A stretch of 39,031 nucleotides of DNA from an uncultured Dehalococcoidia bacterium (lineage in GTDB: Bacteria > Chloroflexota > Dehalococcoidia > UBA2247 > RBG-13-53-26). Made by a program: the position numbers and the translations under genes. The stretch spans positions 1 through 39,031 of the forward strand of contig CAZUZX010000001.1 of the NCBI GenBank assembly GCA_964624525.1, written 5' to 3'. Below the pieces are notes generated by a model. The model was not told where the DNA came from. It was given only the letters and a program-made list of their open reading frames with translations, and did not search any database. Positions 2,621 through 35,891 of the stretch are shown here, one piece after another. Within the stretch, counting starts at the first letter, position 1, and every line of letters begins with the position of its first letter.

Positions 2621-2710
2621 GGAGAGGTGCTGGAGTGGACTATCAGGCGCGCCTGGAGAGCGCGTGGTCGATTTATCGGCCCGTGGGTTCGAATCCCACC
2701 CTCTCCGCCA
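2621..2710 (+). tRNA. tRNA-Ser (anticodon GGA), CCA encoded
   Basis: Acceptor GGAGAGG/CCTCTCC, anticodon stem CGCGC/GCGCG with loop CTGGAGA, long variable arm GGTCGA-TTTA-TCGGCC, T arm GTGGG-TTCGAAT-CCCAC, 3' GCCA. It starts 1 nt after the previous tRNA. Confidence 0.9.
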
Positions 2711-14095: not shown

Positions 14096-14135
14096 CTTGG
14101 CTGCCTCCTTAATATTTTAAAGGTTGGAAATCTGT

Positions 14136-15002: not shown

Positions 15003-15068
15003 AACATTGACCTCCTTACTTCATAATTAGACAAATTGCCTAATTTAACCCACTCAAAGATTGTTAGT

Positions 15069-15521: not shown

Positions 15522-15604
15522 TTGCGGTATAATTATAACCAGAGTAATAAAATTGGTCAATTTTCAAAGGCTCTCTCCTGGCGAAAATAGTAGGGGCTAA
15601 GACT

Positions 15605-22392: not shown

Positions 22393-22755
22393 GACCAAGT
22401 AGGCTGGGTGACCGCTGCCTCAGGGGTGAGAACCTCTAAGGGGGAGGAAAGTCCGGGCTCCACCGGGCAGGATGCTGGGTAACACCCAGGAGGGGCGACC
22501 CTACGGAAAGTGCCACAGAAATATACCGCCTGACATAATCGGGCAAGGGTGAAATGGTGAGGTAAGAGCTCACCGCTCCGATGGTGACATCGGTGGCAGG
22601 CAAACCCCATCCGGAGCAAGACCAAATAGGGGGGCATTAATGTGCCCGGCTAAGCCCTCGGGTTGGTCGCTTGACTCCAATGGTAACATCGGAGCTAGAT
22701 AGATGGTCACTAGTCCATTTGGACTACAGAACCCGGCTTACAAGCCTACTTGGTC
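22393..22755 (+). ncRNA. rnpB: RNase P RNA, bacterial type A
   Basis: P1 pairs gaccaagtaggct (22393-22405) with agcctacttggtc (22743-22755). Universal elements gaggaaagtccgggctcc (about 22443) and acagaacccggctta (about 22726) form P4. ggtaagagctcaccg is the L15/P15 region. Confidence 0.93.
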
Positions 22756-22761
22756 TGTTAA

Positions 22762-23379
22762 TCATATCTGTGGCACGAATCTAGAGGTTTTGTTATTATG
22801 CTGCCTGAGCTTTGGAGATAAGACCTGATTACTATTACTGAAACACGAAGTTCCTTTTATTACTTCCTCAAGCTCTAGCCAGGGAATACCCTTACCTGTT
22901 TCAAGTCCTGCTGCTCCCGATAGATGATTATGCAGCCTCTCTAAATACTCTACGAACTGCTCCAACTCACTCTCAGAAAAAATAAACATTGCTCTTTGAG
23001 CAAGGTCGGGTGTTTTGAGCAGCTGGTGATAAATAAACTCTTTACCTTTCTCAGTAAGCTCAATCCTTTTTATTCTCTTGTCCTTACTATTCCTAGATCT
23101 TCTTATATAATTGCTCTGCTCCATACGGCTAAGCAATCCAGAGATACTTGGACTCTCCCGCTGCAGGTAATAGACTAGCTGTCGAGCTGAGAGCTGAGAG
23201 CCTAAGTAATGCAGAAATACTAAGACTAGAGCCTGCTCACAAGTAATTCCGTCCTCACTAAGTTCAGCCGAGGCAAACTTGTGTAGAGCATTTACACTCT
23301 CCTCAAGTAGCATCCATGCTTTCCGCGCCAGTTTAGATGGAGTATATCCTTTTTCTTCTAACCTAGAGAGCTGATTCAC
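22762..23379 (-). CDS. MarR-family transcriptional regulator with extended C-terminus
   Basis: 205-aa ORF with a GTG start. It has the winged-HTH pattern ...LSARQLVYYLQRESPSISGLLSRMEQSNYIRRSRNSKDKRIKRIELTEKG. About 50 extra C-terminal residues are present. Confidence 0.8.
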   Translation of the reverse strand: MNQLSRLEEKGYTPSKLARKAWMLLEESVNALHKFASAELSEDGITCEQALVLVFLHYLGSQLSARQLVYYLQRESPSISGLLSRMEQSNYIRRSRNSKDKRIKRIELTEKGKEFIYHQLLKTPDLAQRAMFIFSESELEQFVEYLERLHNHLSGAAGLETGKGIPWLELEEVIKGTSCFSNSNQVLSPKLRQHNNKTSRFVPQI

Positions 23380-23546
23380 GAACCTTTTCCCAAATCAAAA
23401 AATCTTATCATAATAGCCAAGTAATTCTGCCTTATTCACAAAGCAAAACCACCTCATCAGGAAGGGTAAGTTACATTATTTTATACCACGAAAGTGATGG
23501 AACTTGTCAAATTATGACAGCACCGTTTAGATAGTTTGCATGCTCC

Positions 23547-23576
23547 TTGATTAAACCAGACGATAGTTGTTAGAAT
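23547..23576 (+). promoter_or_regulatory. Candidate promoter of the ALDH operon (TTGATT-N18-TAGAAT with TGT extension)
   Basis: ttgatt at 23547-23552 and tagaat at 23571-23576, preceded by tgt. It lies 115 nt upstream of the GTG at 23691. Pattern match only. Confidence 0.3.
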
Positions 23577-23600
23577 GGAAAGAAGTTTATCCCCTTAATT

Positions 23601-23614
23601 TTTGAAATTTCAAA
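23601..23614. promoter_or_regulatory. Perfect 14-bp palindrome, candidate MarR operator
   Basis: tttgaaatttcaaa is its own reverse complement. It lies about 25 nt downstream of the candidate -10, between the divergent MarR gene and the operon. Confidence 0.35.
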
Positions 23615-23690
23615 GCTGCTTATTTGATTCTGATGCATTTTTCTGGTGCGAACTTGGAAAATTTAATACCTCATTAATCTTAGATAATTA

Positions 23691-25160
23691 GTGGGAAAAT
23701 TCGTGGCTGAAAAACTGGTAGAGGCGAAGATACTCATTAATGGGAATTGGGTGGAGGGGAGGACAAAAGGCACAGTAAGAAATCCTGCCTGTGTGGATGA
23801 GGTGGTAGGGCATTTCAATATTGCTAGCGAGGCTCAAATTGATGCTGCTGTGTCTGCTGCCGAAAGGGCTGCCCCATCATGGGCAGCGATACCTGTTAGC
23901 CGCCGCGCAGAGCTTGTGCGAGAGGCAGCGCGCTACGGAGATAAGGTTATCGAAGAATTAGCACCTTTACTCACCAGAGAGCAAGGTAAAGTGCTATATG
24001 AGGCAAGACTAGATGTTGGCACGGCGTCATCATTCTTCAATCACGCTGCTGAGATGGCTGAAATCTGGGCTCAATCGCAAACAATCGAGGATAAGTTAGG
24101 AAAAATAATCATCAGGAAGGAGCCCATTGGCGTAGTTGCCATTCTTAGTCCATGGAACTGGCCAGTAACACTAACCGCGCTTTCACTGCATCAGGCACTT
24201 GTAGCCGGAAATTGCGTCGTAGTCAAACCATCGTCCTTCACCCCTCTAACCGTAACCAAGTGGTTTGAGGCAATAGCCAAATTGTTTCCCCCCGGTGTCA
24301 TTAATGTTATCCATGGCTCTGGCTCCACCATAGGTAGAATACTTACCCGGCATCCGCGGGTGCGTAAGGTATCCTTTAGAGGCAGCACTGATACCGGAAG
24401 CGAAGTGATAATGGACATCGCTCCGACAAAGAAGAAGATTAGCATGGAACTGGGAGGGAACGATGCAGCCATAGTCCTCCCCGATGCAGAAGTGAACGAA
24501 AGTTTGTGTGCTCCAATGTTTGCTGGAGTATTTATGACCACTGGACAAGTTTGTATGGCTATCAAGCGCATCTATGTTCACCAATCGTCTTTTGACAAGT
24601 TTGTGAAGGTCTTCACTGAGATAACTGATGAGATAACTGTTGGCAATGGGCTGGATGAGAGAGCAATTATGGGTCCACTGAATAATGCCCAGCAGCTTGA
24701 GACGGTTAAAGGATTGTTAGCGGAGGCGAAGTCACGGGGTGCCAAAGTAGTCGAGGTAGGTAAGAAGTTAGACCCCGAAGGTTGGGAGAGAGGCTACTTT
24801 TACCTGCCTACCATAGTAACCGGCGTGGATGCTTCCTACCGGATTGTATCTGAGGAGCAATTCGGTCCAGCCATCCCCATTATGCCCTACCACGATATTG
24901 ATGAGGCGATTCGCCTCGCTAATGATACCAAGTACGGACTATGTTCCTCTATCTGGACAAGTGATGTAGAAAAGGGATTCGAACTAGCAAAAAGGCTGGA
25001 AGCAGGATATACCTGGATTAATCAACACGGTTGCATGGCAGTGGATCTAGAAGCTCCCTTTGGCGGCTGGAAGGAGAGCGGCATCGGGCGCAGCTTCGGA
25101 GTGGTCGGCTTCGACCATTATATTGAATATCATACCCTGTGTAATAGAGGGGTGACTTAA
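23691..25160 (+). CDS. NAD(P)+-dependent aldehyde dehydrogenase
   Basis: 489-aa ORF with a GTG start. SPWNWP, the catalytic Glu in MELGGND, the catalytic Cys in TTGQVCMAIKR, and EEQFGP are ALDH superfamily motifs. Confidence 0.92.
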   Translation: MGKFVAEKLVEAKILINGNWVEGRTKGTVRNPACVDEVVGHFNIASEAQIDAAVSAAERAAPSWAAIPVSRRAELVREAARYGDKVIEELAPLLTREQGKVLYEARLDVGTASSFFNHAAEMAEIWAQSQTIEDKLGKIIIRKEPIGVVAILSPWNWPVTLTALSLHQALVAGNCVVVKPSSFTPLTVTKWFEAIAKLFPPGVINVIHGSGSTIGRILTRHPRVRKVSFRGSTDTGSEVIMDIAPTKKKISMELGGNDAAIVLPDAEVNESLCAPMFAGVFMTTGQVCMAIKRIYVHQSSFDKFVKVFTEITDEITVGNGLDERAIMGPLNNAQQLETVKGLLAEAKSRGAKVVEVGKKLDPEGWERGYFYLPTIVTGVDASYRIVSEEQFGPAIPIMPYHDIDEAIRLANDTKYGLCSSIWTSDVEKGFELAKRLEAGYTWINQHGCMAVDLEAPFGGWKESGIGRSFGVVGFDHYIEYHTLCNRGVT

Positions 25161-25175
25161 AAAGGAGGGATGGCA

Positions 25176-25973
25176 ATGCCAATCACGGTGAAGGACAAGG
25201 TTATCATTATCACTGGGGCAGGGCAAGGAATAGGCAGAGCCTATGCGGAGACATTGGCAGCAGAGGGAGCAAAGGTAGTGATTGCTGAACTTAATTTTGA
25301 AAGAGCTAAAGAGGTGGAGGCAAGCATTAAAGCCAAGAGGGGTGAGGCTTTAGCTGTACGCACTGATGTGAGCAAGGCAGAAAGTACCCGTGAGATGGTA
25401 AGGAGAGCGGGAGAAAAGTATGGGCGTGTTGATGTGTTAGTTAATAATGCCGCTGCTTACTACGGGCTGAAAATGACCTTCTTCCCTGACTTAGATGAGG
25501 CTGAATTTGATAGCCAGTGGCAGGTTAATGTCAAAGGCCTTTGGCAATGCTGCAAGGCAGTGCTTCCGCAAATGATTAAACAAGGCAAGGGTAAGATTAT
25601 CAATATTGCCTCGACAGTAGCTTGGGTTGCCCCCTATGGGATGCTACACTATATAGCTTCCAAAGGGGCGGTGCTCTCCATGACCCGCGCTCTGGCTAAG
25701 GAGGTGGCTGAGCTGGGGGGACCAGACTCCCAGATAACGGTTAACACCTTGGTTCCTGGGATTACCTGGACAGACGCCACGGTCCACCTTTTTTCCGAGC
25801 AGCCGATGTTTGGCGACATGGCTTTAGAAACCCAGATCCTCAAACACAGGCTAATGCCTGAGGATCTGGTGGGGGCCATGTTATTTATGTGCTCTGATGC
25901 CTGCGATTTTATGACCGGAAGCACCGTAGTAGTGGATGGAGGCATGGCTTTCGATTTAACTTGTGCGAAATAG
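25176..25973 (+). CDS. Short-chain dehydrogenase/reductase (classical SDR)
   Basis: TGAGQGIGRAY (TGxxxGxG), NNAA and YIASKGAV (YxxxK) are present. The ATG at 25176 is 7 nt from SD aggagg; the alternative ATG at 25170 is only 1 nt from it. Confidence 0.9.
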   Translation: MPITVKDKVIIITGAGQGIGRAYAETLAAEGAKVVIAELNFERAKEVEASIKAKRGEALAVRTDVSKAESTREMVRRAGEKYGRVDVLVNNAAAYYGLKMTFFPDLDEAEFDSQWQVNVKGLWQCCKAVLPQMIKQGKGKIINIASTVAWVAPYGMLHYIASKGAVLSMTRALAKEVAELGGPDSQITVNTLVPGITWTDATVHLFSEQPMFGDMALETQILKHRLMPEDLVGAMLFMCSDACDFMTGSTVVVDGGMAFDLTCAK

Positions 25974-25993
25974 GAATTAGAAAGGAGGGTGAC

Positions 25994-26416
25994 ATGGCAG
26001 TTTTTAAGGATAGCAAGGAATTGCTGGAGTATATTGCTGGTGCCTGGGAAAGGGTCTTGCAAATTCCGGAGCTGGAGAAAGAGCTACGAAAAGCTAACGC
26101 CGTGGCTCTGCTCCGCTACACTGATCCAGAGGCTTTCTTCTATGTTGATTGCTCCAAGGACCCGAGCCGGGTTGTCTATGAACATATGGAGAGACCAGCG
26201 GAGTTGGATATGGTCATGTCGGGAGACTTTGGCAACAAGTTCATGTGTGGCAAGACAAGCATGCCGGTAGCCATGATGAAGGGAGAAATCAAGATTAAAG
26301 GACCGACTTCACTCCTATTCTCCATGCTGCCAGTAGTCAGAAAAAGCTTTGATGTCTACCGCAAGCTACTTGAAGAGAAAGGAAGGAAAGATCTGCTTGA
26401 GGCTGCCGAAAAATAG
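25994..26416 (+). CDS. SCP2 sterol/lipid-binding domain protein
   Basis: 140 aa from the ATG at 25994, with SD aaggaggg upstream. ELDMVMSGDFGNKFMCGKTSMPVAMMKGEIKIKGP fits the SCP2 fold consensus (...Gkl....Afm.Gklki.G). Confidence 0.75.
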   Translation: MAVFKDSKELLEYIAGAWERVLQIPELEKELRKANAVALLRYTDPEAFFYVDCSKDPSRVVYEHMERPAELDMVMSGDFGNKFMCGKTSMPVAMMKGEIKIKGPTSLLFSMLPVVRKSFDVYRKLLEEKGRKDLLEAAEK

Positions 26417-26451
26417 CTTAATTAGCTAAACCTTAAAAGAGGAGGTTAGAA

Positions 26452-28089
26452 ATGGCAGACGCAACTTACGATGCGGTCATAGTAGGGGCAGGGACTAAAG
26501 CTCTAGTTACCGCAATGTATTTGACCAAATACGGTAGGATGGATGTAGCTCTATTTGAGGAGAGGGTTGAGGCTGGAGGGGGTTGGGGTGGCGAAGATAC
26601 CCCCGCTCCTGGATTTATCCATAATGTGCATTCCACCGACCATACTGCCTGGCATATAGGTCCAGTATATGATGACTTCCCTGATTTCGAAGAGAAAGGT
26701 GCTAAATACATCCAGCCTAAAGCTACCGGGGCATGTATCTTCCGCGAAGATCAGCGGTGTTTGATTTTTTACGGTGATAAATACGACCCCGAGGGAGAAC
26801 TTACCGCTAAAAGCATCGCTCAGTTCTCTGAGCGGGATGCAGCAATCTACAAACAGGTTGTGGACGCATTCAATGGTATCTGGCGTCCAATTATATATGA
26901 ATGGTTCTTCACTGTGGCACCTCCCCCAGAGGAATTAGATATACTTGAGAGGACTTTACACAACCCAGCAGTTGGCATAGACCCATTATGGTTGGAGATG
27001 TCGCCGCTCCAGGTAATAGAGGAGTTATTTGAAAGCCCGGAGATGAAAGCAGCCATCTTACGCCAGATGGAGTCTTTTCCCACCGTGCACCCGGATATGC
27101 CCGGGGGGTGGCTCGGGGTATGGGGCTTAATTGCCGCTGTGGGCTGGTATGGGCTCAATTTTGCCGTCGGGAGTAGTCACAGTACCGCCCACGCTGCCGT
27201 AAGGGTTATCCTGGAAAACGGAGGAAAGATCTTCACCAAGAACAAGGTGGACAAGATCTTGATAGAGAATGGTAAGGCGAGAGGCATCCGCCTCACCAAT
27301 GGCACTGAGATAGAGGCAAGAAAACTGGTGGTCAGTACTCTGAACCCTTACCAGCTCTGTTTCAATTTAATCGGTCGAGAACATCTGAGCGCCAATATAT
27401 TAAACAGAGTAAGTAACCTGCGCAGCAACCTTATTACCGTAACCTGGTACGGATGGGCTATCCATGAGCCGCCAAGGTATACCGCAGCTAAGTTTAATCC
27501 TGATATAAATGAGGTTCAATGGACCACGCTGTGCGATAGGGATTATAAAAAACAGGTAAGATTTTGGCATATGCGTTCCGCAGGTATAATGCCACCGGAT
27601 CCCTATTTAGCCACTTGGTGTCACAGCCGTTTTGACCCCACACAAGCACCCCAGGGGAAGCAGACAGCCGCCCATGAGGCTTATGTTCTCAACGCCACCG
27701 CCCTTACTGAAAGGGAGTGGCTAAAGTTCAAGAAAGAACATGCCGAGTATGCGATAAAGACCTGGCAGGAGTATGCCCCTAATATGACCTGGGATAATGT
27801 GATTGGATACGACCCTATTACCCCCTACGATATAGCCAAGAGGCTCTCAAATATGGGTCCCGAGGGTAATTGGGGGGTTATTGACCACCTCGCTTCCCAG
27901 GTGGGGAAAAACAGACCTATACCTGAGTTGGCGCAACACAGAACTCCAATTAAAAACCTTTATGCCACGGGGTCGGCTTGGCCCCCGTTTGGTATGGCTA
28001 CCACCAATCAGGGTTATACTTGTTACAAGGTTATCGCTGAAGACTTTGGGCTGAGGAAACCCTGGGAAGAAAAGAATCGCCCCTACTAA
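26452..28089 (+). CDS. FAD-dependent oxidoreductase, phytoene-dehydrogenase (CrtI/COG1233) family, paralogue A
   Basis: 545-aa ORF with an N-terminal dinucleotide fold [19 protein letters not shown]...[10 protein letters not shown] and a C-terminal [14 protein letters not shown] agaggagg is upstream. Confidence 0.82.
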
Positions 28090-28102
28090 TAAGGAGGAAA
28101 AT

Positions 28103-29725
28103 ATGCCAACGAAACATGACGTCATAATCATCGGTGCCGGTCCCAATGGGTTGACCACCGGGGCTTACTTAAGTAAAGCAGGGTTGAAGGTCTTAGTTTT
28201 AGAGAGGCGAACCGAAGGCGGTGGAGGTTTAGCTACTGAAGAGGTAACAATCCCTGGCTTTTTCCATAATACCCATTCTATCTACCATATGATGGTGGAC
28301 TATGCACCGCCCTACAAGGACTTCCAGATTGAAGAAGTCTACGGTTGCAAATACATCCGTCCTCCTCTGCAATTCGCCTTACCCCTTTCTGACGGACGCT
28401 GCCTCTGTCTCTATACCGATGTGGACAAGACCTGTAATTCCATAGCTCAATTTTCCCAGCGGGACGCCACATCCTATCGCAACTTTTATCATAAACTTAA
28501 CAGATATATGGAGGCATTCCTTGGTCCAGCTACTTACGTGCCACCCCTTGGTCTCCTGGAGCAGGTAGCCAAGTTGGAGAAAACTGAGATCGGCAAGGAG
28601 ATAAATGCCTATACAGAGAAAAGCCCAAGAGAGATTGTTGATGAATTCTTTGAAAACAAGCACGTCAGGGCAATGATGTTATATATTGCCTGCCACTGGG
28701 GGCTGGAGCACGATGTTGAGGGGGTAGGGTATCTCGCTCTCGTCAATCTAAATAGATCAACCAATTATCAGTTGTGTGCTGGCGGCTCCCACATGCTGGC
28801 TCAGGCACTAATGAAGGCAGTGATAGAAAACGGGGGGATGATCTGGGGTAGTCAGCAGATAAAGCGGATTGTGCTTCAAGATGGCGCCGCTACAGGGGTA
28901 GAGCTAGATGATGGCACAATAATTGAAGCTGATAAGGGAATAGTCAGCAGTATTGACCCCTATCAGACTTTCTTCAAGCTTGTAGGAGAAGGTAATCTAG
29001 AGAAGGACTTTGTGAAAAAACTCAAAACATGGAAGTGGGAGAAATGGAGTCTATTTGTTTCCCACCTGGCACTAGAGGAGCCACCTAACTTCTCCGCTGC
29101 TGCCGCCAACCCCGATGTCAATAAAGCCTTTGTATATATCATCGGGTGTGAGACTGAGGAAGAACTCATAAAACATTGGGAAGCAATAGGACGGGGAGAA
29201 CTGACAAGCGCCGGCTTCAACTGCTGCTTCCCAAGTATTCATGACCCCAGCCAAGCACCGCTCGGAAGGCACACCGGTCTTATTTCCCAGATGGTCCCTT
29301 ACCAACTGAAGGAGGGAGCAGACAAGTGGTACCGCATAAAGTTCAAAGAGGAGCATGGGGAGAGATGCTTAACCACCCTCAGGAAATATGCTCCAAACCT
29401 GACGGCAGATAAGATATTATGGAGTTCTTTCTGCACTCCTATGGATATAGAAAATAAGTTCACTGATATGGTGGAAGGCTCTATCAAGCAAGGGCAGTAC
29501 CACCCCCTCCAGATGGGCTACAACAGACCCAACGACGAATGCTCTCAGAATATAACCCCTATTAAAAGGCTCTATCTTTGTGGTTCGAGCTGCCACCCTG
29601 GTGGTTTAATAACCTTTGGAGCGGGATATGTGGCAGCTAACCGCATCGCTGAGGAGCTAGGAGTTAAAAAATGGTGGACAGAACCCGAGATTATCACCAA
29701 AGCCAAGGAGGTAGGTCTATTATGA
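28103..29725 (+). CDS. FAD-dependent oxidoreductase, phytoene-dehydrogenase (CrtI/COG1233) family, paralogue B
   Basis: 540-aa ORF with [19 protein letters not shown]...[11 protein letters not shown] and a C-terminal [14 protein letters not shown] taaggagg is upstream. It starts 13 nt after paralogue A. Confidence 0.85.
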
Positions 29726-29967
29726 GAGTGAGATCAACCGGGTTGGGCAAAACGGAGCTGATATGTGGTATCGAAGGTATAAGCCGAAAGGAGGATTTTC
29801 TTATTATGTCGGTCCGCTCTACGGAGCCAGTAGCTTGGCATATCAGGGTGGCTCTAGAGTACAAGGACCTACTAAAGCTTATCGTAAGCTGTTTGAAAGG
29901 CTCGGTTATGTGGTTCGTTCTCTCCGGCTTCACTATCAGAAGTCCCAAGGTGCCGGAGAAGTACTAA
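29722..29967 (+). CDS. Hypothetical 81-aa protein, translationally coupled to paralogue B
   Basis: The ATG at 29722 overlaps the TGA at 29723-29725 (ATGA), and SD aaggaggt lies at 29705-29712. I recognise no family. An internal echo is present: MRVRSTG... / MSVRSTE... Confidence 0.5.
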
Positions 29968-30044
29968 AACTCACTAGATGATAAGGGAAGGGTTTGATTT
30001 GAAAGCAATAGAATTTTGTTGAAGTCCCATCAAGGAGGTGTGAA

Positions 30045-31472
30045 ATGGCATTTAAAGACAATCGGGAATTTATAGTCGCTTTAGAGAAGACGGGAGACAT
30101 AGTTCGGGTGAGGAGAGAGGTGGATTGGGACTTAGAGGTAGGAGCAATTATTCGCCGCCTCAATGAGACAGAGGGTCCAGCTGCTTTTTTCCAGAAGATC
30201 AAGAACTATCCCGGACATACCATCTTTGGGACACCACTGGCTACCTTCAGACGGATGGCTGTTGCCCTAGGGCTCCCTGCCGATACTCCCAGGGCTGTGA
30301 TCCAGCAACACTACGAGAGTCTCATAGAACAGCCGATAAAACCTATTATTGTCAAAGATGCCCCTTGCAAAGAGAACATCATCAAAGGCAAGAACATAGA
30401 CCTTTATGAGTTCCCTGCTCCTATGGTCCATGAGGGAGACGGGGGGCGCTATATTGGCACTTGGCATGTGGTGGTGGGCAAGGACCCTGATAGCGAGTGG
30501 GTCAATTGGGGGATGTATCGCCTACAGATTCTGGGGCGAAGAGCTATGGGGGGTGTAATCGGTCCTTGGGCAAATCAGTTCCAGCTCTTTTATGGGAAAT
30601 ATGTACCCCGAGGTCAGAATATGCCCTTTGCCATAGCCATCGGGGCGGATCCCGTTAGCTCTTTTCTTGCCGCTTCTTATCTACCCCCGGGAGTAAGTGA
30701 GGCGGATTACGCCGGGGGCTTACGTCAGGAGCCAGTGGAGTTGATTAAATGCGAAACTAACGACCTGTATGTGCCCGCCTATGCTGAGATAATACTCGAA
30801 GGGGAAATCCTGAAGGATGTCACGGTAAACGAGGGACCCTTTGGAGAATATGTCGGCTACCGGGCTGGTCCCCGCACTGCTCGACCGGTTTATCAAGTAA
30901 ATTGCATCACCCACCGCAACAATCCTATTCTTACTGTATCGAATATGGGACTTCCTATTGATGACTGTGCTCTGGGGATGTCTATAAGCTTAGCCTATCA
31001 AATAAAAAAGCGCTTACGTGATTTTAGGATACCCTTCATTGATGTTAATGTGGTGCCAGAGGGAATTACGTTTCTGGCGGTAGTAAGCACCATACCCTTC
31101 TATAGTGGTATAGCCAATCAGATCGCCCATATAGCTAGCCAAACTATAGAACCACATATGGTGATAGTAGTGAATAACGATGTAGACGTCTTCGATATCC
31201 GTCAAGTATTACATGCCCTGGCTACCAAGTGTCATCCGGTGAGAGGAATAAGGGCGTTCGAAAGCGAGATGGGGTTACCTTTCTGCCCTTACTTAAAACC
31301 AGAAGAGAGGCGTATCATGAAAGGGGCTCGTGTAGTATTTGATTGCACCTGGCCCCTTGATTGGCCAAAGGAAACAGCTATCCCACCTCGCTCTTCCTTC
31401 AATGAGATGTATCCTCAAGAAATTAAGGATAAGGTTCTCGCTAATTGGAAGAAATATGGATTTAAATCCTAA
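30045..31472 (+). CDS. UbiD-family prenylated-FMN-dependent (de)carboxylase
   Basis: 475-aa ORF. FKDNREFIVALEKTGDIVRV, VNWGMYRLQ and NEGPFGEYVGYR are UbiD family signatures. SD aaggaggt is upstream. Confidence 0.9.
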   Translation: MAFKDNREFIVALEKTGDIVRVRREVDWDLEVGAIIRRLNETEGPAAFFQKIKNYPGHTIFGTPLATFRRMAVALGLPADTPRAVIQQHYESLIEQPIKPIIVKDAPCKENIIKGKNIDLYEFPAPMVHEGDGGRYIGTWHVVVGKDPDSEWVNWGMYRLQILGRRAMGGVIGPWANQFQLFYGKYVPRGQNMPFAIAIGADPVSSFLAASYLPPGVSEADYAGGLRQEPVELIKCETNDLYVPAYAEIILEGEILKDVTVNEGPFGEYVGYRAGPRTARPVYQVNCITHRNNPILTVSNMGLPIDDCALGMSISLAYQIKKRLRDFRIPFIDVNVVPEGITFLAVVSTIPFYSGIANQIAHIASQTIEPHMVIVVNNDVDVFDIRQVLHALATKCHPVRGIRAFESEMGLPFCPYLKPEERRIMKGARVVFDCTWPLDWPKETAIPPRSSFNEMYPQEIKDKVLANWKKYGFKS

Positions 31473-31499
31473 GCTAGGTCTTAAATCAGGAGGAATAGC

Positions 31500-31781
31500 A
31501 TGGCAAAGAAAAAAGAATACGATACTTTTGTAGCTAGCCTAGAGGAACTCACCCAAGGGCAGGAAACAGACATCAGCATCAGAGATTTAACTCCCGGTAG
31601 GCGGAAGTATGAATGGAAATATGTGAAAGCGATAGTATCTAGTTCGCCAGACAAATTGAAGGGTGGAGATGTTCTCTGGCTCAGGTTTAATGACACTGGG
31701 TTTCGACACCCTCAACCTTGGGCAATAAAGGTTAAGGAGATACTGGGCGAGTATGTTTCCCAAGAAAGAGTAGCTTATTAA
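31500..31781 (+). CDS. Hypothetical 93-aa protein downstream of UbiD
   Basis: SD caggagga precedes the ATG, which is 27 nt after the UbiD stop on the same strand. I recognise no family. Confidence 0.55.
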   Translation: MAKKKEYDTFVASLEELTQGQETDISIRDLTPGRRKYEWKYVKAIVSSSPDKLKGGDVLWLRFNDTGFRHPQPWAIKVKEILGEYVSQERVAY

Positions 31782-31994
31782 ACTGAGACAGGGATGACGT
31801 GTCGGCGAGAGCGAAACAGAAGGTGCGGAAGATGGAGTAAAAATGCCCTTTTGTCTCTATTTGGCACAAGAAAATGTGAGACCGAGAGCTTGTGAGGGGG
31901 CTTTTTAAAGGTTAGGCGAGGGTGGTTTTAAATTAATTGATTTGTCTGGAACAACTTTGATTTTGAGAAATTTTTAGGTTACTCTTCCCATGGA

Positions 31995-32252
31995 ATGCAG
32001 GTTCATCCCCAAGTTGCTGGCTTTATCCTTTTCTGCGTCCAGCGTCGCGGCGAGAAATGGCCTGAGCTTTATGACGAAATGTGTCGAGTAGCTGGGCGAG
32101 GTCTTTTTCAAGGTCTACATTATAAGGAATTAAGAAAGCTTGGACTTTCACTCAGCCTGAATCATATTGAAGAGACCATCAGCATGGTGGAGGCAGTAAC
32201 GAACCACCAGTTTGATAACCGATCTTTAGACCAGATCGTTAACAAACCTTAA
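31995..32252 (+). CDS. Hypothetical 85-aa protein (orphan small ORF)
   Basis: This is the only sizeable ORF in the 590-nt gap. Its composition is protein-like (PELYDEMCRVAGRGLFQGLHYKELRKLGLSL). There is no clear SD and I cannot name a family. Confidence 0.4.
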   Translation: MQVHPQVAGFILFCVQRRGEKWPELYDEMCRVAGRGLFQGLHYKELRKLGLSLSLNHIEETISMVEAVTNHQFDNRSLDQIVNKP

Positions 32253-32315
32253 GTTAAATTCCTTTCATTTTTTGGGTTTTGGGTTTCTCTGTTAAGCATA
32301 CCCTCTTGCCTCAAA

Positions 32316-32344
32316 TTGCGGTAAGAAGTAGTTCGTGCTAAAAT
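32316..32344 (+). promoter_or_regulatory. Candidate promoter of hisZ-hisG (TTGCGG-N17-TAAAAT, extended -10 TGC)
   Basis: ttgcgg at 32316-32321 and taaaat at 32339-32344, preceded by tgc. It lies 28 nt upstream of the hisZ ATG. Pattern match only. Confidence 0.3.
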
Positions 32345-32372
32345 ATGCGCCGATTTTTAGAATCTCAAAACT

Positions 32373-33647
32373 ATGAAAGTGCAAAGATGCAAAGGTAGTC
32401 GAGATCTGCTTCCTGAGGATATAGCAAGGTTTCGATATGTCGAGCAAGTTTTTAGGTCTTGTTGCCAGAGGTGGGGTTATAAGGAGATAAGAACACCCAC
32501 CTTAGAGTATCTCCATTTGTTTACTTCCGCGGGAACTCTTACCCCTAGTATGCTTAATAAGGTGTATTCTTTCCTTGATTGGGATGGCTGGAGCGGAGAG
32601 AGAGTAGTATTGAGACCCGAGGGCACTATCCCAGCAGCTCGACTTTACATTGAAAATTTCAAACCGTCCGGTCTAGCTAAACTATTCTATGTAGAAAATA
32701 TCTTTAGTTTCGAAGAGACCGGAAAGGAATCGAGGGAACGTTGGCAGTGTGGAGCTGAGTTAATAGGAAGTAATAAACCGTCTGCAGATGTGGAGTTGGT
32801 CTTGCTTGCTTTGGAAACTTTGGAAAGAATGGGTATCAAGGAAGTAAAGTTATGCCTCTCCCACGCTGGGCTGATAAAAGCTCTGCTCCGAGAATCAGGA
32901 TTGACACCATCAAAAGAAATCCAAATATTTGACCGAATTCTGGATGGAGACACAGAAATAGCAAGGGAAATTATAAAGGATAATCCCCAGCTTCGGGACT
33001 CTTTACCTTTACTTTTTGAACTCAGGGGGAAATCGCCTGGTTTCCTTGAGAATCTAAAGGTTTCCCTGACAAAAGCCTCACCTAATCTTAAGCTAAGCAT
33101 GGAAAACTTTATAACTATTGCTCAACTGCTGACTGATATGGGCTGTAAATATCAGATTGATATTGCTTCAGGCAAGGGCTTCGAGTATTATACGGGGATT
33201 ATTTTCCAAGTTTATCTTGGAAGCCAGAAAGTAGGAGGAGGGGGAAGATATGACGATCTAATTCCTCTCCTAGGAGGGAGTGATACTCCTGCCTCTGGTT
33301 TCGCTCTTTACATTGACCAGCTTATGAGCCTCCTCCCTTCCGGGGATTCGGGAGAGGATGCTTCAAAAATGATTCTAGTTCGAAACGAGATCGATGGAGT
33401 CAAGGGATGGAAGCTATCCTTTGAAATTGTTAGCCTACTACGGGAAGCTGGATATATAGTGGAGCTTGACCAAGGCTATAAAGAGCTAACCGAGCATCAA
33501 TGGATTCTCAAAATCCAAGAAGAAGGAGAAAGGCTCTTCTTCCTTTTGACTCATCAAGCTAGTGGTAAAAGCCTAGAGGCAGATTCACCAACCGGGATTT
33601 TGAGCATATTGCAGGGAACAAATGCAAATAAAGCTGGCTCTTCCTAA
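32373..33647 (+). CDS. hisZ: ATP phosphoribosyltransferase regulatory subunit HisZ (full-length HisRS paralogue)
   Basis: 424-aa ORF. KGSRDLLPED, LRPEGT, KGFEYYTG and GGGGRYDDL are HisRS-like. The motif 2 and motif 3 arginines appear replaced (NIFSFEE, ALYIDQL). It overlaps hisG by 26 nt. Confidence 0.8.
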   Translation: MKVQRCKGSRDLLPEDIARFRYVEQVFRSCCQRWGYKEIRTPTLEYLHLFTSAGTLTPSMLNKVYSFLDWDGWSGERVVLRPEGTIPAARLYIENFKPSGLAKLFYVENIFSFEETGKESRERWQCGAELIGSNKPSADVELVLLALETLERMGIKEVKLCLSHAGLIKALLRESGLTPSKEIQIFDRILDGDTEIAREIIKDNPQLRDSLPLLFELRGKSPGFLENLKVSLTKASPNLKLSMENFITIAQLLTDMGCKYQIDIASGKGFEYYTGIIFQVYLGSQKVGGGGRYDDLIPLLGGSDTPASGFALYIDQLMSLLPSGDSGEDASKMILVRNEIDGVKGWKLSFEIVSLLREAGYIVELDQGYKELTEHQWILKIQEEGERLFFLLTHQASGKSLEADSPTGILSILQGTNANKAGSS

Positions 33648-35052
33648 GGGACGTTTGCTTCCTTACACAAATATTTTATTGCAAAAGGCAAGGCTGGAAC
33701 TCAGCGACTACGAGGAGCAATCTCGCTCCTATCGACCTCGATGCAATGGTCTTCCTAACCTCTTTCTAAAGATGTTTCATGAAAAGGATATACCTATACA
33801 AGTAGCAGTAGGAAACTACGACTTAGGGATCTGTGGGCTGGATTGGGTTGAAGAGCTTTTAGTTAAATATCCTAGCAGTGCCTTGGTCAAGGTGCATGAC
33901 CTGGGGTATGGCAAAAGCAATCTATATATAGCTATTGGTAGATCGGCTGGTATATCATCGTTAGAAGAGCTAAAGGCTAAGGCGGAGATAATACGTATAG
34001 CTAGCGAATACCCCAATCTAGCTGAATCCTTCGCCTTAAACATGAGGTTGAGGCGATTTAAGATTTTCCCACTTTGGGGGGCGGCTGAGGTTTACCCCCC
34101 AGAAAGTGCTGATCTCGCCTTGGTCTCTCATGCTTCTCCCGATAGTCTTTTCAAGCATGGGCTAGTTCCTCTGACTTCGATTCTTCAGTCGAGTGCTTTT
34201 CTAGTTGCCCACCGGCATAGCTGGGAATATAAGGATATGAGCTTCTTGCTCCATTGCTTTCATGCTGTAGAGGGTATAGAGAAGGAGACAGTAAATAAAG
34301 AGTTGGAGACTAGAGGCAGTATGGAGAAGCAGGGATTCAGCCCCCAGTTTCCGGCTGCTGGTTTGTGGCTTGCTCTTCCTAATGGACACCAACAGCAACC
34401 TACCCTTGAATTCTTAAACCAGGTTGGTCTCAAAGTCTGGGATTACCCTTCGGAGTCTCGCCGCCCCAATATCAGCCTTGATGGTGTTAGTGTGAAAGTG
34501 ATTCGACCTCAAGATATGCCTCTTCAGATTGCCAATAAGAATTTTGATCTAGCCATCACCGGTCAAGACTGGCTTTATGATCACCTTTGCCGTTTCCCCT
34601 CCAGCCCAGTGAAGGAACTTCTCAAATTGGGATTCGGTAAGGTGCGGATTGTAGCTGTAGTGAGCCAGGAATTGCCAGTAAGTAGTATTCAGAACTTAAG
34701 GGAACTATTGAGGGAAGGCAAACTCTCTACTCTCAGGATAGCCTCAGAATACATTAATATTGCCGACAGGTATGCTCGAGATAACCACCTTAGCCCTTAT
34801 AGATTGATCCCCACATGGGGGGCAAGTGAGGTCTTCCTACCAGAAGATGCTGACTTGCTTATCGAGAATGTTCAGACAGGGCAAACTGTGGCCCAGCATA
34901 ATCTCAAGATTATCGACACCATTTTCGAATCATCAGCTTGTCTTATTGGCAATGTACATACCTCTCCGCTTAAGCAACAGAAGATAGATTATGTTGTCCA
35001 AGTTCTCCGCCAGGCAGTAGTGACTAATGATAAAACTTTAAAGAGGGGGTAG
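33622..35052 (+). CDS. hisG: ATP phosphoribosyltransferase, tandem-duplicated short-form HisG fusion
   Basis: 476-aa ORF made of two HisG-like halves: aa 1 to about 215 (IKLALPKGRL...) and about 245 to 476 (LWLALPNGHQ...). The halves align with each other along their length. Only the second half carries the DLLIENVQTGQTV PRPP-loop motif. Confidence 0.85.
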   Translation: MQIKLALPKGRLLPYTNILLQKARLELSDYEEQSRSYRPRCNGLPNLFLKMFHEKDIPIQVAVGNYDLGICGLDWVEELLVKYPSSALVKVHDLGYGKSNLYIAIGRSAGISSLEELKAKAEIIRIASEYPNLAESFALNMRLRRFKIFPLWGAAEVYPPESADLALVSHASPDSLFKHGLVPLTSILQSSAFLVAHRHSWEYKDMSFLLHCFHAVEGIEKETVNKELETRGSMEKQGFSPQFPAAGLWLALPNGHQQQPTLEFLNQVGLKVWDYPSESRRPNISLDGVSVKVIRPQDMPLQIANKNFDLAITGQDWLYDHLCRFPSSPVKELLKLGFGKVRIVAVVSQELPVSSIQNLRELLREGKLSTLRIASEYINIADRYARDNHLSPYRLIPTWGASEVFLPEDADLLIENVQTGQTVAQHNLKIIDTIFESSACLIGNVHTSPLKQQKIDYVVQVLRQAVVTNDKTLKRG

Positions 35053-35060
35053 ATGTTATT

Positions 35061-35891
35061 ATGGAGTTTCAGGCTATCATCTTTAAAAAAGAAGACCGAA
35101 TCGCTACTATCACCCTAAATCGCCCTGAAGTCTTAAATGCCATAAACGAGCAAATGGGTGATGAACTATCCCGAGCAATCAAGGATGTATCACAAGATGA
35201 TGATATCAGGGTACTAATCATTAAAGGGGCTGGTCGCGCCTTCTGTGCTGGGGCAGATTTCAGGTTTGGGATGGTAAGAGCTGAGGAGGTTACCCCTGAA
35301 AAGGCAGAGGCATTACCGGGATTTCACGAGGACTTGAGGAAAGGGAAACTTCTTCACAAAGGGCAACTAGATATAATCCTTGCCCTTCAGCGCCTGGATA
35401 AACCAACGATTGCTATGGTGAATGGACCAGCTGCTGGTTTTGGGTTTGACCTGACTTTAGCCTGTGACATGCGGATAGGCTCCCCTGAGGCAAGGTTTAT
35501 GGTAGGCTTTACCAGGATAGGAATTCCTTCCGATACTGGAGGAACCTGGCTAATGCCACGGATTATGGGCTTGGGCAAAGCCCTGGAATATATCTTTACC
35601 GGTGATTTTTGTAATGCTGATGAAGCTTATAGAATAGGGCTGCTGAACAGACTCGTGCCTGCTGAGCAACTCGAAGAAGAAGCAATGGCATTGGCTCGCA
35701 AGATAGCAATGGGTTCCCCTATAGCTTATAGATTATCAAAACTGCAGGTATATCGAGGGTTGGAAACAGACCTAGAAACGGCACTAGCATTAGCTACTGC
35801 TTGTGTCTCAATAGCTATCTCTTCGGAGGATCATAAGGAGGGGATTAGAGCCTTCGCTGAAAAGAGACCACCCCAGTTCAAAGGTAGATGA
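35061..35891 (+). CDS. Enoyl-CoA hydratase/isomerase (crotonase) family protein
   Basis: 276-aa ORF. ITLNRPEVLNA, FCAGADF, AMVNGPAAGFGFDLTLACDMRIG and C-terminal AFAEKRPPQFKGR show it is a paralogue of 16598-17380. Confidence 0.9.
   Translation: MEFQAIIFKKEDRIATITLNRPEVLNAINEQMGDELSRAIKDVSQDDDIRVLIIKGAGRAFCAGADFRFGMVRAEEVTPEKAEALPGFHEDLRKGKLLHKGQLDIILALQRLDKPTIAMVNGPAAGFGFDLTLACDMRIGSPEARFMVGFTRIGIPSDTGGTWLMPRIMGLGKALEYIFTGDFCNADEAYRIGLLNRLVPAEQLEEEAMALARKIAMGSPIAYRLSKLQVYRGLETDLETALALATACVSIAISSEDHKEGIRAFAEKRPPQFKGR

Follow-up and report, generated by a model that had tools for sequence, protein, structure and literature searches.

In order to discern what a strict anaerobe of the Dehalococcoidia might do with two flavoprotein genes set beside a UbiD gene, we analysed a 39-kb stretch of its DNA (39,031 nt; hereafter the window), together with related loci from other genomes. 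We tentatively read the genes as a MarR-controlled catabolic operon for the O2-independent oxidation of an allylic or benzylic methyl group and the processing of the acid so formed, a reading to which we give somewhat less than an even chance. In agreement with the preliminary description of this locus, full-text literature searches returned no description of such a flavoprotein–UbiD operon combination.

Gene content and layout

Between 23691 and 31781 the plus strand carries eight co-directional genes (Table 1). All eight ORFs of the preliminary description were confirmed, as were the short gaps it reported (9, 20, 35, 13, −4, 77 and 27 nt, in order from ALDH to the PpcG-like gene) and the ATGA shared by the FlavB stop and the s81 start (29722–29725). 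Its Shine–Dalgarno sites held for seven of the eight genes, each with a GGAGG-type ribosome-binding site 6–9 nt 5' of the start (AAGGAGG in the case of s81), whilst none was present at the ALDH GTG at 23691. As the exact product from this GTG was absent from the protein collection searched, the true ALDH start may be GTG 23703. For the SCP2-like gene, the longest ORF begins at TTG 25961, and the GGAGG-preceded ATG at 25994 yields the 140-aa form that is on record in the collection. Gene order and family assignments were observed directly: seven of the eight products matched curated families, the exception being the 81-aa ORF (s81), which we accept as a real gene because dozens of other genomes have conserved homologues adjoining a FlavB gene. 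On both grounds, the operon ORFs are genes rather than chance ORFs. Their co-transcription we infer from the spacing. The operon is flanked by the housekeeping genes rnpB and hisZG.

Table 1. Features of the operon and its control region (positions in the window)
Feature	Position	Strand	Basis
MarR-family regulator	22762–23379	−	PF01047, PF12802
Putative divergent control region, 311 nt, AT-rich	23380–23690	.	
ALDH	23691–25160	+	ORF
SDR	25170–25973	+	ORF
SCP2-like	25994–26416	+	ORF, 140 aa
FlavA	26452–28089	+	ORF
FlavB	28103–29725	+	ORF
s81 (81-aa ORF)	29722–29967	+	ORF
UbiD	30045–31472	+	ORF
PpcG-like (93-aa ORF)	31500–31781	+	ORF

The divergent MarR gene was likewise confirmed (PF01047, 38.4 bits; PF12802, 35 bits), its start lying 311 nt from that of ALDH; every NCBIfam equivalog scored far under its cut-off for this protein, which is probably a ligand-responsive repressor. 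Within the control region we found weak direct repeats, GAACTTGTCAAATT and GAACTTGGAAAATT, spaced 150 nt, as well as promoter-like hexamers at 23387–23414 and 23547–23576. In simple promoter and terminator scans, sites were no more frequent than in shuffled sequence.

The flavoprotein pair and the small protein s81

FlavA and FlavB, both of which matched curated flavoprotein folds, are adjacent paralogues of 32 % identity and share the motif G-F-x-x-N-x-H, which reads GFIHNVHS in FlavA (residues 54–61, with His60 at the flavinylation position) and GFFHNTHS in FlavB (residues 52–59, with H55, N56 and H58 invariant in 18 homologues). They belong to the same fold superfamily as the carotenoid enzymes CrtO, which functionalizes an allylic carbon, and CrtI. 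Indeed, the CrtO ketolase model was the top NCBIfam match for both, and the best PDB match for FlavB was CrtI (4dgk; only E 8.8e-9). Their scores, however, were far under the cut-offs (162 and 220 against 1000 bits for CrtO; 41 and 83 against 238 bits for crtI_fam), and here the enzyme would be a heteromer of two paralogues, in a non-carotenoid context and with anaerobe hosts. The 39-kb window contains no carotenoid gene; crtB, crtE and prenyltransferase genes were all absent from it. The pair is therefore assigned, from sequence features, to the CtmAB/delta-24-steroid desaturase type rather than to carotenoid enzymes, as originally suggested; kinship with CtmAB was judged from paralogy, the His motif and family scores rather than from direct identity figures to CtmA or CtmB.

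The limonene dehydrogenase CtmAB of Castellaniella defragrans was reportedly treated by Puentes-Cala et al. in 2018. [quoted passage not shown] CtmA and CtmB are adjacent paralogous COG1233 flavoproteins of 27 % identity, and the best database match of CtmB is a protein of strain NaphS2 at 41 % (PMC4109377). In contrast to CtmAB, the window's operon lacks CtmEF ferredoxin and ferredoxin-reductase genes, belongs to a strict anaerobe rather than a denitrifier, carries the conserved 81-aa gene directly 3' of FlavB, and has a UbiD/PpcG pair in place of CoA ligase and ring-cleavage genes. Delta-24-SD of Sterolibacterium denitrificans similarly consists of alpha/beta paralogues (∼60 kDa, 26 % identical), each with covalent FMN at the His of G-F-L/R-X-N/S-T/L-H-A, and performs O2-independent allylic oxidation of a hydrophobic (sterol) substrate; it differs in that it desaturates, hydroxylation being left to a separate molybdenum enzyme (PMC11061730), and in that a small third subunit and a UbiD partner are unreported there.

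FlavB shares 55–69 % identity with proteins of Dehalococcoidia, Desulfomonile, strain NaphS2 (57 %) and Syntrophales; the nearest non-self relative of FlavA reaches only ∼52 %, and in related loci FlavA-type genes form tandem arrays adjoining a single FlavB gene. FlavA is the variable and probably substrate-binding subunit, and FlavB the conserved partner.

The preliminary description left both small ORFs unassigned, an omission that can now be repaired. Although s81 had no match in Pfam and NCBIfam searches, a profile search recovered 207 representative clusters among 1.84 billion proteins, and in 63 of 158 loci homologues lie ≤ 5 kb from FlavA/FlavB, mostly beside FlavB. Residues M1, S5, G7, L8, G9, P36 and W39 are invariant, and the C-terminal segment is hydrophobic; the AlphaFold model (pLDDT 68.5) had no fold match in the PDB. 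As the family adjoins FlavB in anaerobe genomes, s81 is probably a third subunit of the flavoenzyme or, in the same vein, its membrane tether or assembly factor. It belongs to an unannotated family and would be a previously unnoticed small partner of the limonene-dehydrogenase-type flavoenzyme.

Companion enzymes and related loci

ALDH (PF00171, Aldedh, 471 bits) reached the cut-off of no NCBIfam equivalog and has generic ALDHs as its closest solved structures; it is predicted to oxidize an aldehyde to the acid with NAD(P)+, and the SDR (adh_short, 188 bits) to convert an alcohol to the carbonyl. The SCP2 assignment made earlier survives marginally: PF02036 was passed at 21.7–22 bits against a cut-off of 21.3, the best PDB sequence match had only E ∼0.5, and the single-sequence AlphaFold model was unusable (pLDDT 42). 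The protein is a candidate carrier of a hydrophobic substrate.

The UbiD protein contains UbiD_N, UbiD and UbiD_C domains (UbiD matches of 225+68+56 bits) and exceeds the TIGR00148 cut-off (298.6 against 244.85 bits). Its best NCBIfam model is phenyl_P_alpha, the PpcA model (478 bits, under the cut-off of 564.6), ahead of UbiD proper (170 bits) and MqnL-type models (202 bits). Residues N154, R159, E219, E263 and E268, which we take to be equivalent to Fdc1 N168, R173, E233, E277 and E282, are conserved, and the catalytic residues are thus intact. The protein is predicted to be a prFMN (de)carboxylase of a PpcA-like clade, whose relatives are numerous among MAGs of Dehalococcoidia and Desulfobacterota. 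The 93-aa ORF that follows resembles PpcG, the small subunit accompanying UbiD (PF09662, Phenyl_P_gamma, 37 bits, over the 25-bit cut-off; TIGR02725, 38 bits, under 135.55); homologues of 39–62 % identity share loci with related UbiD genes, directly 3' of UbiD in L087, L089, L092 and L060, and with two FlavA genes intervening in L116. The arrangement recalls Ppc of Thauera and Aromatoleum and the UbiD-type arene carboxylases, in which a PpcA-like UbiD is likewise joined by a ∼10-kDa PpcG-family protein. Unlike in Ppc, there is one UbiD paralogue here rather than alpha and beta, both scores fall under the equivalog cut-offs, and the window contains no Ppc beta paralogue, delta phosphatase, phenylphosphate synthase or ubiX gene. 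Nor does the window encode a CoA ligase. The UbiD family claimed earlier is thus upheld, but, since the protein is closest to PpcA, it could as plausibly carboxylate, and act on an aromatic or phenolic substrate, as decarboxylate an isoprenoid acid.

Two linkages recur among the 158 FlavA/FlavB loci, namely FlavA/FlavB–s81–SDR and FlavA/FlavB–UbiD. The enzyme that most often accompanies the module, after s81, is an SDR; SDRs 38–50 % identical to that of the window lie ≤ 5 kb away in 45 loci. Most loci have no UbiD gene; in 16 it lies ≤ 600 nt from FlavA/FlavB (14 co-directional), and in only eight more at 600 nt to 5 kb. These UbiD genes belong to differing subfamilies (25–60 % identical to the window's), occur in unrelated lineages, are interleaved with flavoprotein genes in L116 and L142, and in L087 repeat the order FlavA–FlavB–UbiD–PpcG. 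An AMP-forming CoA ligase gene lies just 5' of FlavA–FlavB–UbiD in L085 and L087, an arrangement consistent with carboxylation and subsequent activation with CoA. In L060, UbiD, PpcG, a second UbiD and UbiX are near FlavB–FlavA–SDR and a molybdenum hydroxylase. In NaphS2 the module is followed, after a few genes, by a full acetone/acetophenone-carboxylase-type subunit set, and in L004/L006 (Dehalococcoidia) by only the gamma-subunit gene, on the opposite strand. On the contigs recovered, which are often short, several FlavA/FlavB–UbiD loci have neither an SDR nor an ALDH in view. Hosts include the aromatic degraders NaphS2, Syntrophorhabdus and the TRIP phenanthrene culture. Across ∼170 related loci, ALDH and SCP2-like homologues were confined to the window's own contigs. 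As such, the gene families and the flavoprotein–UbiD linkage of the preliminary description hold up, whereas its complete gene set is not syntenic elsewhere.

Proposed pathway and alternatives

Here we infer hydroxylase over desaturase chemistry, together with how the steps follow one another, which way UbiD works, the substrate and the electron acceptor. The CtmAB-type flavoenzyme, composed of a variable catalytic FlavA, the conserved FlavB and s81, would take a hydride or a hydrogen from a carbon that adjoins a C=C bond or an aromatic ring in a substrate that the SCP2-like protein may deliver, and would add water to give a primary alcohol. The SDR would convert this to the aldehyde and ALDH, essentially irreversibly, to an α,β-unsaturated or aromatic carboxylic acid, which the PpcA-like UbiD and its PpcG-like subunit would decarboxylate, so that the methyl group is oxidatively removed as CO2. 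This scheme, in which a methyl group becomes an acid that is then decarboxylated, is the reading we find most economical, held with limited confidence. In its favour are the tight operon, the match of FlavA/FlavB to CtmAB and delta-24-SD as O2-independent oxidizers of allylic carbon, the recurrent SDR linkage, the adjacency or interleaving of differing UbiD subfamilies (including the L087 order) and the intact catalytic residues. Ketone-carboxylase genes near the module (NaphS2, L004/L006) point to an alcohol as the flavoenzyme product; the ALDH beside the SDR implies that this alcohol is primary and the target therefore a methyl group, and ALDH chemistry fixes the oxidative direction.

Functional analogues only are the anaerobic ethylbenzene, p-ethylphenol and p-cresol routes (EBDH/Ped/Apc; PCMH), where O2-independent C–H hydroxylation with water leads through an SDR/ADH to an ALDH or ketone carboxylase. 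The NaphS2 locus has the same hydroxylase–SDR–carboxylase order, and its ketone-carboxylase genes, like those of L004/L006, parallel the ethylbenzene route, in which CH2 becomes CHOH, then C=O, and is then carboxylated. The hydroxylases of the analogous routes, which are either molybdenum enzymes or flavocytochromes of the VAO type, have no sequence relationship with FlavA/FlavB. Other observations weigh against methyl oxidation with decarboxylation: UbiD is closest to a carboxylase, SDR and ALDH are missing at several FlavA/FlavB–UbiD loci, and the full pathway, with ALDH and SCP2-like homologues absent from related loci, is without comparative support. The operon has no ferredoxin, ETF or cytochrome genes. 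Furthermore, limonene dehydrogenase depends on an acceptor of high potential, and those who described it doubt that it functions in highly reduced systems (PMC4109377), which, with the lack of ubiX in the window, also counts against methyl oxidation.

With a lesser though appreciable probability, carboxylation would come first or be coupled: UbiD/PpcG would carboxylate an aromatic or alkenyl compound, and FlavA/FlavB–s81, SDR and ALDH would oxidize its alkyl side chain to a (hydroxy)dicarboxylate or hydroxy-acid for a CoA-dependent pathway encoded elsewhere, as in cresol to hydroxymethylbenzoate to hydroxyphthalate. Phenylphosphate, benzene and naphthalene carboxylases are precedents, and the PpcA-like score with a PpcG-like subunit, the CoA ligases of L085/L087, the L060 gene set and the aromatic-degrading hosts agree with it; the sub-cut-off alpha and gamma scores do not, nor do the Ppc beta, phosphatase, synthase and CoA ligase missing from the window, helpers without which UbiD carboxylation is thermodynamically uphill. 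We consider it unlikely that FlavA/FlavB is a desaturase or saturase that makes or consumes a carboxyl-conjugated C=C bond, enabling UbiD to act on an acrylic-type acid or alkene, while SDR and ALDH only supply the acid from a natural alcohol (e.g. cinnamyl-, coniferyl- or perillyl-type). Delta-24-SD, one of two characterized relatives, does desaturate rather than hydroxylate, FlavA is paired directly with UbiD at several loci with no visible SDR/ALDH, and Fdc1-type enzymes, which act on acrylic acids, are among the solved structures nearest to UbiD; however, the SDR linkage and NaphS2 ketone-carboxylase set indicate an alcohol product, and UbiD is nearer PpcA (478 bits) than Fdc1 chains in the PDB (∼250–270 bits), a rough comparison across differing search types.

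Less credible still is the absence of any single pathway, with ALDH–SDR–SCP2, FlavA–FlavB–s81 and UbiD–PpcG serving two or three independent functions between rnpB and hisZ. The restriction of ALDH and SCP2 to the window's organism and the 77-nt gap 5' of UbiD would suit this, yet the remaining genes overlap or are spaced by 9–35 nt with strong Shine–Dalgarno sites, and both the SDR linkage and the UbiD adjacency, in independent lineages and differing subfamilies, recur. Carotenoid or isoprenoid-quinone biosynthesis (CrtI/CrtO-type enzymes with a quinone UbiD), or O2-independent prFMN maturation for UbiD, is very improbable. Beyond the CrtO model topping both searches, to our knowledge oxidative prFMN maturation in anaerobes is unresolved, which favours a maturation role; we disfavour these ideas given the sub-cut-off carotenoid scores, the low UbiD-proper and MqnL-type scores beside that for PpcA, and the pathway genes missing from the window, and because UbiD is absent from the majority of FlavA/FlavB loci and FlavA has diversified strongly, a poor fit to housekeeping maturation.

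Returning to the methyl-oxidation reading, these findings reveal an undescribed yet recurring pairing of a flavoenzyme with UbiD, which probably carries out the O2-independent oxidation of a methyl-type carbon in a greasy compound, followed by the loss or gain of CO2.

Gene order and setting of the operon

The eight genes downstream of the divergent MarR-type regulator gene are separated, in order, by 9, 20, 35, 13, −4 (an ATGA overlap), 77 and 27 nt, and seven of them carry a GGAGG-type site 6–9 nt before the start codon. The exception is the aldehyde dehydrogenase (ALDH) gene, whose start position is uncertain (GTG 23691 or 23703) and whose translation from GTG 23691 was not in the protein collection searched. 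The regulator contains a winged-helix MarR domain that scores above the Pfam cut-off, and its start lies 311 nt from that of the ALDH gene. The RNase P RNA gene ends 5 nt short of the MarR stop codon, and the operon is an insertion between rnpB and hisZ.

Features of the operon and of its surroundings
Feature	Position	Strand	Score or remark
tRNA genes, two adjoining	2532-2619; 2621-2707	+	Rfam tRNA model
Tungsten-type aldehyde:ferredoxin oxidoreductase, citryl-CoA-lyase-like protein, MaoC dehydratase in a row	12269-15560	-	
Crotonase	16598-17380	-	
rnpB, class A bacterial RNase P RNA	22396-22756	+	321.9 bits
MarR regulator	22762-23379	-	PF01047 38.4 bits, cut-off 24.6
ALDH	23691-25160	+	PF00171 471 bits
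SDR	25170-25973	+	adh_short 188 bits
SCP2-like	25994-26416	+	PF02036 21.7-22 bits
FlavA	26452-28089	+	amine-oxidase/phytoene-desaturase fold
FlavB	28103-29725	+	amine-oxidase/phytoene-desaturase fold
s81 (81 aa)	29722-29967	+	homologues beside FlavB in related loci
UbiD	30045-31472	+	UbiD_N, UbiD and UbiD_C domains
93-aa ORF, PpcG family	31500-31781	+	PF09662 37 bits, cut-off 25
85-aa ORF	31995-32252	+	3' of operon; no SD site, no family
hisZ/hisG	32373 onward		downstream flank of operon
hisG ORF	33622-35052	+	476 aa by first-start rule
Crotonase	35061-35891	+	

The remainder of the window holds housekeeping genes (aspS, tig, clpP, topA, efp and ispH) and anaerobe-type metabolism, including a tungsten-type aldehyde:ferredoxin oxidoreductase, a citryl-CoA lyase and a B12 radical-SAM enzyme, and near-identical pieces of the contig, which is 39,031 bp long and part of an NCBI assembly, are present in JGI, ENA and Logan assemblies. 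Its best hits suggest a Chloroflexota/Dehalococcoidia-like bacterium, a likeness that falls short of a taxonomic assignment. The row of three genes at 12269-15560 and the two crotonase genes represent anaerobe-type acid/aldehyde and acyl-CoA metabolism near the operon, and are not co-oriented. The 85-aa ORF, found only in the window's own contigs, probably lies outside the operon. As the HisG model begins only at residue 249 of the hisG ORF, translation may in fact start near 34.36 kb; if not, the protein has an N-terminal extension without assignment.

The flavoprotein pair and its small neighbour

The two paralogous flavoproteins FlavA and FlavB, encoded 13 nt apart, are 32 % identical over 540 residues (E 6e-87). 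The sole characterised enzymes of this type, both from denitrifiers, are limonene dehydrogenase (CtmAB) of Castellaniella defragrans (PMC4109377) and the steroid desaturase delta-24-SD of Sterolibacterium denitrificans; each is a heteromer of two paralogues that are 26–27 % identical (for delta-24-SD, PMC11061730). In both enzymes each subunit binds its flavin covalently through the His in a motif near the N-terminus, G-F-L/R-X-N/S-T/L-H-A (PMC11061730). Their subunits have the accessions CDM25290 (CtmA), CDM25289 (CtmB), WP_067170564 (delta-24-SD alpha) and WP_067170561 (delta-24-SD beta). The corresponding motifs of FlavA (GFIHNVHS, residues 54–61) and FlavB (GFFHNTHS, residues 52–59) deviate conservatively from the published one at positions 3, 6 and 8, and the flavinylation His is invariant in an alignment of 18 FlavB homologues. 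Additionally, CtmB found its best database match of 2014 in strain NaphS2, at 41 % identity (PMC4109377), and a NaphS2 homologue is 57 % identical to FlavB. As such, adjoining paralogues, a His motif in both and the link through NaphS2 all favour the term CtmAB-like that the preliminary description had used for the pair, a likeness that runs through published features. At the flavinylation position of 141 FlavA-type ORFs we counted 101 His and 30 Cys (e.g. the FlavA homologues L015 8338- and L008 2108- in related loci); the presence of Cys in about a fifth of these proteins hints that some of them may attach the flavin by an 8-alpha-S-cysteinyl bond.

All carotenoid models of NCBIfam scored below their cut-offs for both proteins: 41 and 83 bits (FlavA and FlavB, respectively) against 238 for crtI_fam, 162 and 220 against 1000 for CrtO, and 40 and 77 against 580 for CrtD. 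The best PDB match of the flavoproteins was CrtI, at an E-value of only 8.8e-9, and no phytoene synthase gene was found in the window. A carotenoid reading of the pair was rejected on these cut-offs together with the gene context. A difference from the limonene dehydrogenase operon concerns electron transfer, as the ctmABCDEFG operon has a dedicated ferredoxin and reductase (CtmE and CtmF), whereas no Fer2, Fer4 or reductase gene lies within 22762-32372.

The FlavB family returned 2884 matches, of which the best 120 are 58–69 % identical to FlavB; its hosts include Dehalococcoidia, other Chloroflexota, Desulfomonile, Syntrophales, Syntrophorhabdus, strain NaphS2, the TRIP phenanthrene culture and Actinomycetota, among others. 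FlavA is far more divergent, with non-self relatives reaching about 52 % identity at most, a metagenome scan included. In a plasmid collection there were only relatives of about 30 % identity with generic annotation. FlavA-type genes are frequently repeated in tandem next to one FlavB gene, with four copies in one metagenome locus (L112) and three in two others (L134 and L142), which suggests a conserved core of FlavB, with or without s81, combined with a variable, specificity-determining FlavA.

The 81-aa ORF (s81) that overlaps the FlavB stop codon matched no Pfam or NCBIfam family. Homologues with 28–50 % identity occur within 5 kb of FlavA or FlavB in 63 of 158 related loci, mostly directly beside FlavB, and they follow closeness to the window's FlavB: s81 is present in 31 of the 53 genome-set loci with a FlavB that shares 48 % identity or more with it and in 2 of the 27 more distant ones. 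A profile search of 1.84 billion proteins gave 207 representative clusters, nearly all of them stand-alone proteins of 80–125 aa. The signature consists of M with 12 further letters (not spelled out here) and, further on, P-V-x-W, followed by a hydrophobic C-terminal segment. An AlphaFold model of moderate confidence (pLDDT 68.5) has four strands and two helices, and a Foldseek search of the PDB returned nothing below E = 1. A relationship to the PpcG-like protein was considered on account of a pairwise BLAST E-value of 0.015, but was rejected given a profile–profile probability of 0.2 %. From its sequence and position, we infer that s81 may be a third subunit, a membrane tether or an assembly factor of the flavoenzyme in this anaerobe clade; the hydrophobic tail would be the sole hint of a membrane link for electron transfer.

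Companion genes in the window and in related loci

The window's UbiD has the three-domain architecture of the family and its conserved metal, phosphate and catalytic residues, and scores 298.6 bits with TIGR00148 (cut-off 244.85). The conserved residues N154, R159, E219, E263 and E268 we take to be equivalent to N168, R173, E233, E277 and E282 of Fdc1. Residue 177 is Asn, aligned with the Fdc1 Mn2+ ligand His191, in a column where the 16 clade members have H, D or N. The best specific model was phenylphosphate carboxylase alpha, at 478.3 bits and thus below its cut-off of 564.6. The 93-aa ORF that follows, judged from sequence, is a PpcG-family small subunit; it scores 38.1 bits with TIGR02725, below the cut-off of 135.55, and homologues 39–62 % identical to it follow related UbiD genes elsewhere. 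Of the ORFs scanned in the window, none matched PF02441 (ubiX).

The remaining enzymes are less specific. No NCBIfam equivalog cut-off was reached by the ALDH or the SDR, and their closest solved structures are generic and uninformative on substrate. The SCP2-like protein matches PF02036 only marginally (cut-off 21.3), has a best E-value of about 0.5 against PDB sequences and gave a single-sequence AlphaFold model with a pLDDT of 42; a jackhmmer search over all related-locus ORFs found its relatives only in the window's own contigs.

In order to place the operon among its relatives, we used FlavA or FlavB as the only bait and retrieved 158 loci, whose median length of about 10 kb makes all neighbour counts lower bounds. 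Within 5 kb of the flavoprotein genes an SDR was found in 45 loci and a UbiD-family gene in 24. The UbiD genes were within 600 nt in 16 loci (co-directional in 14), and only eight fell in the much wider zone of 0.6–5 kb, a distribution that serves as a control against chance within the data. Identities of 25–60 % between the adjacent UbiDs and that of the window indicate that several UbiD subfamilies were recruited independently. Of the gene set listed in the preliminary description, the linkage of FlavA and FlavB to an SDR and their linkage to UbiD each recur, whilst no homologue of the ALDH or the SCP2-like protein was found in any related locus except the window's own contigs.

The order of the flavoprotein, UbiD and PpcG genes is repeated in L087, where a CoA ligase and a ferredoxin gene precede FlavA-FlavB-UbiD(56 %)-PpcG(57 %). 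The closest FlavB relative (67–68 %), in the Dehalococcoidia locus L085, belongs to a FlavA-FlavB pair followed by a UbiD of another subfamily (33 %). UbiD genes are interleaved with the flavoprotein genes in L116 (FlavA-PpcG(62 %)-FlavA-FlavA-UbiD(53 %)-FlavB-s81, with gaps of 1–106 nt) and in L142 (FlavA-FlavA-FlavA-UbiD-FlavA-UbiD); together with L112 and L134 these loci show up to four FlavA copies by a single FlavB and s81, and such arrays suggest interchangeable specificity subunits. A different arrangement is seen in strain NaphS2 (L022, ADZZ01000306.1, 111-20980), where the order SDR-FlavA-FlavB-s81-s81-SDR is preceded by two NCR-like old-yellow-enzyme genes and a sigma-54 activator and followed by acetone/acetophenone-carboxylase-type genes, making it a candidate for an uncharacterised hydroxylation–carboxylation route in a naphthalene degrader. 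Two near-duplicate Dehalococcoidia loci (L004 and L006) have FlavB, an s81-like gene and an SDR as in NaphS2, and the gene for an acetone-carboxylase gamma subunit lies a few genes further downstream, on the other strand. Furthermore, the window's own samples contain a paralogous cluster (L172 594-4719; also L124 and L173–L175) with the order FlavA(49 %)-FlavB(56 %)-145-aa protein-s81(81 %)-URO-D-like gene; the 145-aa protein is weakly SCP2-like (E 0.06) and the URO-D-like gene possibly encodes a corrinoid methyltransferase.

Proposed chemistry, alternatives and significance

The preliminary description had proposed an O2-independent oxidation of a methyl group to an acid followed by decarboxylation. 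We keep this as the leading and most economical reading, re-weighted to somewhat below an even chance; its ALDH and SCP2-like components are the part that comparison with relatives does not bear out. By this proposal, FlavA and FlavB would oxidise an allylic C-H bond without O2, as their characterised relatives do, and the product of the anaerobe-clade flavoenzyme would be an alcohol, as judged by its habitual SDR companion and by the ketone carboxylases of NaphS2-type loci. The logic is that of ethylbenzene degradation, in which ethylbenzene dehydrogenase, an alcohol dehydrogenase and acetophenone carboxylase act in turn. The added ALDH of the window points to a primary alcohol and hence to attack on a methyl group and, as NAD(P)-dependent ALDH reactions are practically irreversible, fixes the oxidative direction. 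The ALDH would yield an aromatic or alpha,beta-unsaturated acid, of the very class that UbiD enzymes act on, and UbiD would then decarboxylate this acid in the downhill direction, so that the net reaction would convert R-CH3 to R-H and CO2 with the release of six reducing equivalents. Problems for this pathway are that limonene dehydrogenase requires a high-potential acceptor, that no CtmEF-like genes are present in the operon and that the window shows no ubiX gene.

The main rival, which we regard as possible though somewhat unlikely, is that a PpcA-like UbiD/PpcG enzyme carboxylates a ring or alkene whilst a side chain of that molecule is oxidised by the flavoenzyme together with the SDR and the ALDH. 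It is favoured by the affinity of UbiD to PpcA, by the presence of a CoA ligase in both L085 and L087, and by a locus (L060) in which ubiX adjoins the UbiD genes. The likeness to the alpha-beta-gamma-delta phenylphosphate carboxylase (Ppc) is nevertheless limited, as the window's UbiD and 93-aa ORF stay below the alpha and gamma equivalog cut-offs, and the operon contains neither another UbiD gene as a counterpart of the Ppc beta paralogue, nor a HAD phosphatase gene for the phosphatase subunit, nor a PEP-utilising synthase gene for phenylphosphate synthase. A role of FlavA and FlavB as desaturase or saturase, the former being the activity of delta-24-SD, is unlikely beside the SDR companions that point to an alcohol. 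We consider it quite improbable that the genes form unrelated sub-operons; scans for promoter and terminator consensus sequences gave no signal beyond that of shuffled sequence, so the single-operon reading is based on spacing. Biosynthetic or maturation roles appear very improbable, and maturation of prFMN by FlavA and FlavB was judged unlikely because most FlavA/FlavB loci have no UbiD gene.

Every enzymatic part of the methyl-oxidation and decarboxylation proposal except s81 is a known family. What appears undescribed is the clade of CtmAB-type enzymes that strict anaerobes have together with s81, the recurrent and sometimes interleaved linkage of that clade to UbiD/PpcG, and the full alcohol–aldehyde–acid extension of the window. 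Full-text literature searches for limonene or phytoene dehydrogenase in connection with carboxylases, UbiD or Dehalococcoidia returned nothing relevant, and only nine of the papers searched name limonene dehydrogenase; this agrees with the preliminary description, whose author knew of no described operon with this combination. We offer, as a doubtful idea, a modular system independent of O2, molybdenum and glycyl radicals, in which a FlavB and s81 core with interchangeable FlavA, each having a UbiD-type enzyme of its own as genetic and perhaps also physical partner, would allow strict anaerobes (Dehalococcoidia, Syntrophales and Desulfobacterota) to release methyl or alkyl carbons of aromatic or isoprenoid hydrocarbons as CO2, or else to link the oxidation of C-H bonds with carboxylation. 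If true, this would be a fourth general strategy of anaerobic hydrocarbon activation. "Anaerobic demethylation" of cresols was reported for methanogenic consortia in the early 1990s, and such a system could account for it.

These findings show that strict anaerobes have a large and well-conserved clade of this enzyme type, which has its own small partner and repeated links to SDRs, ketone carboxylases and UbiD-type (de)carboxylases, the window being a UbiD case. If FlavA and FlavB do hydroxylate C-H bonds, this would challenge the view that such chemistry needs a high-potential acceptor, and would give terpenoids, alkyl-aromatics or sterol-like lipids a new way into the anaerobic carbon cycle of sediments and aquifers. 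The regulator and the eight genes span 9 kb and form a compact, clonable set, which makes the question open to experiment. The locus is real and compact and, should its function be as we infer, could open up a new O2-independent attack on methyl groups in strict anaerobes.
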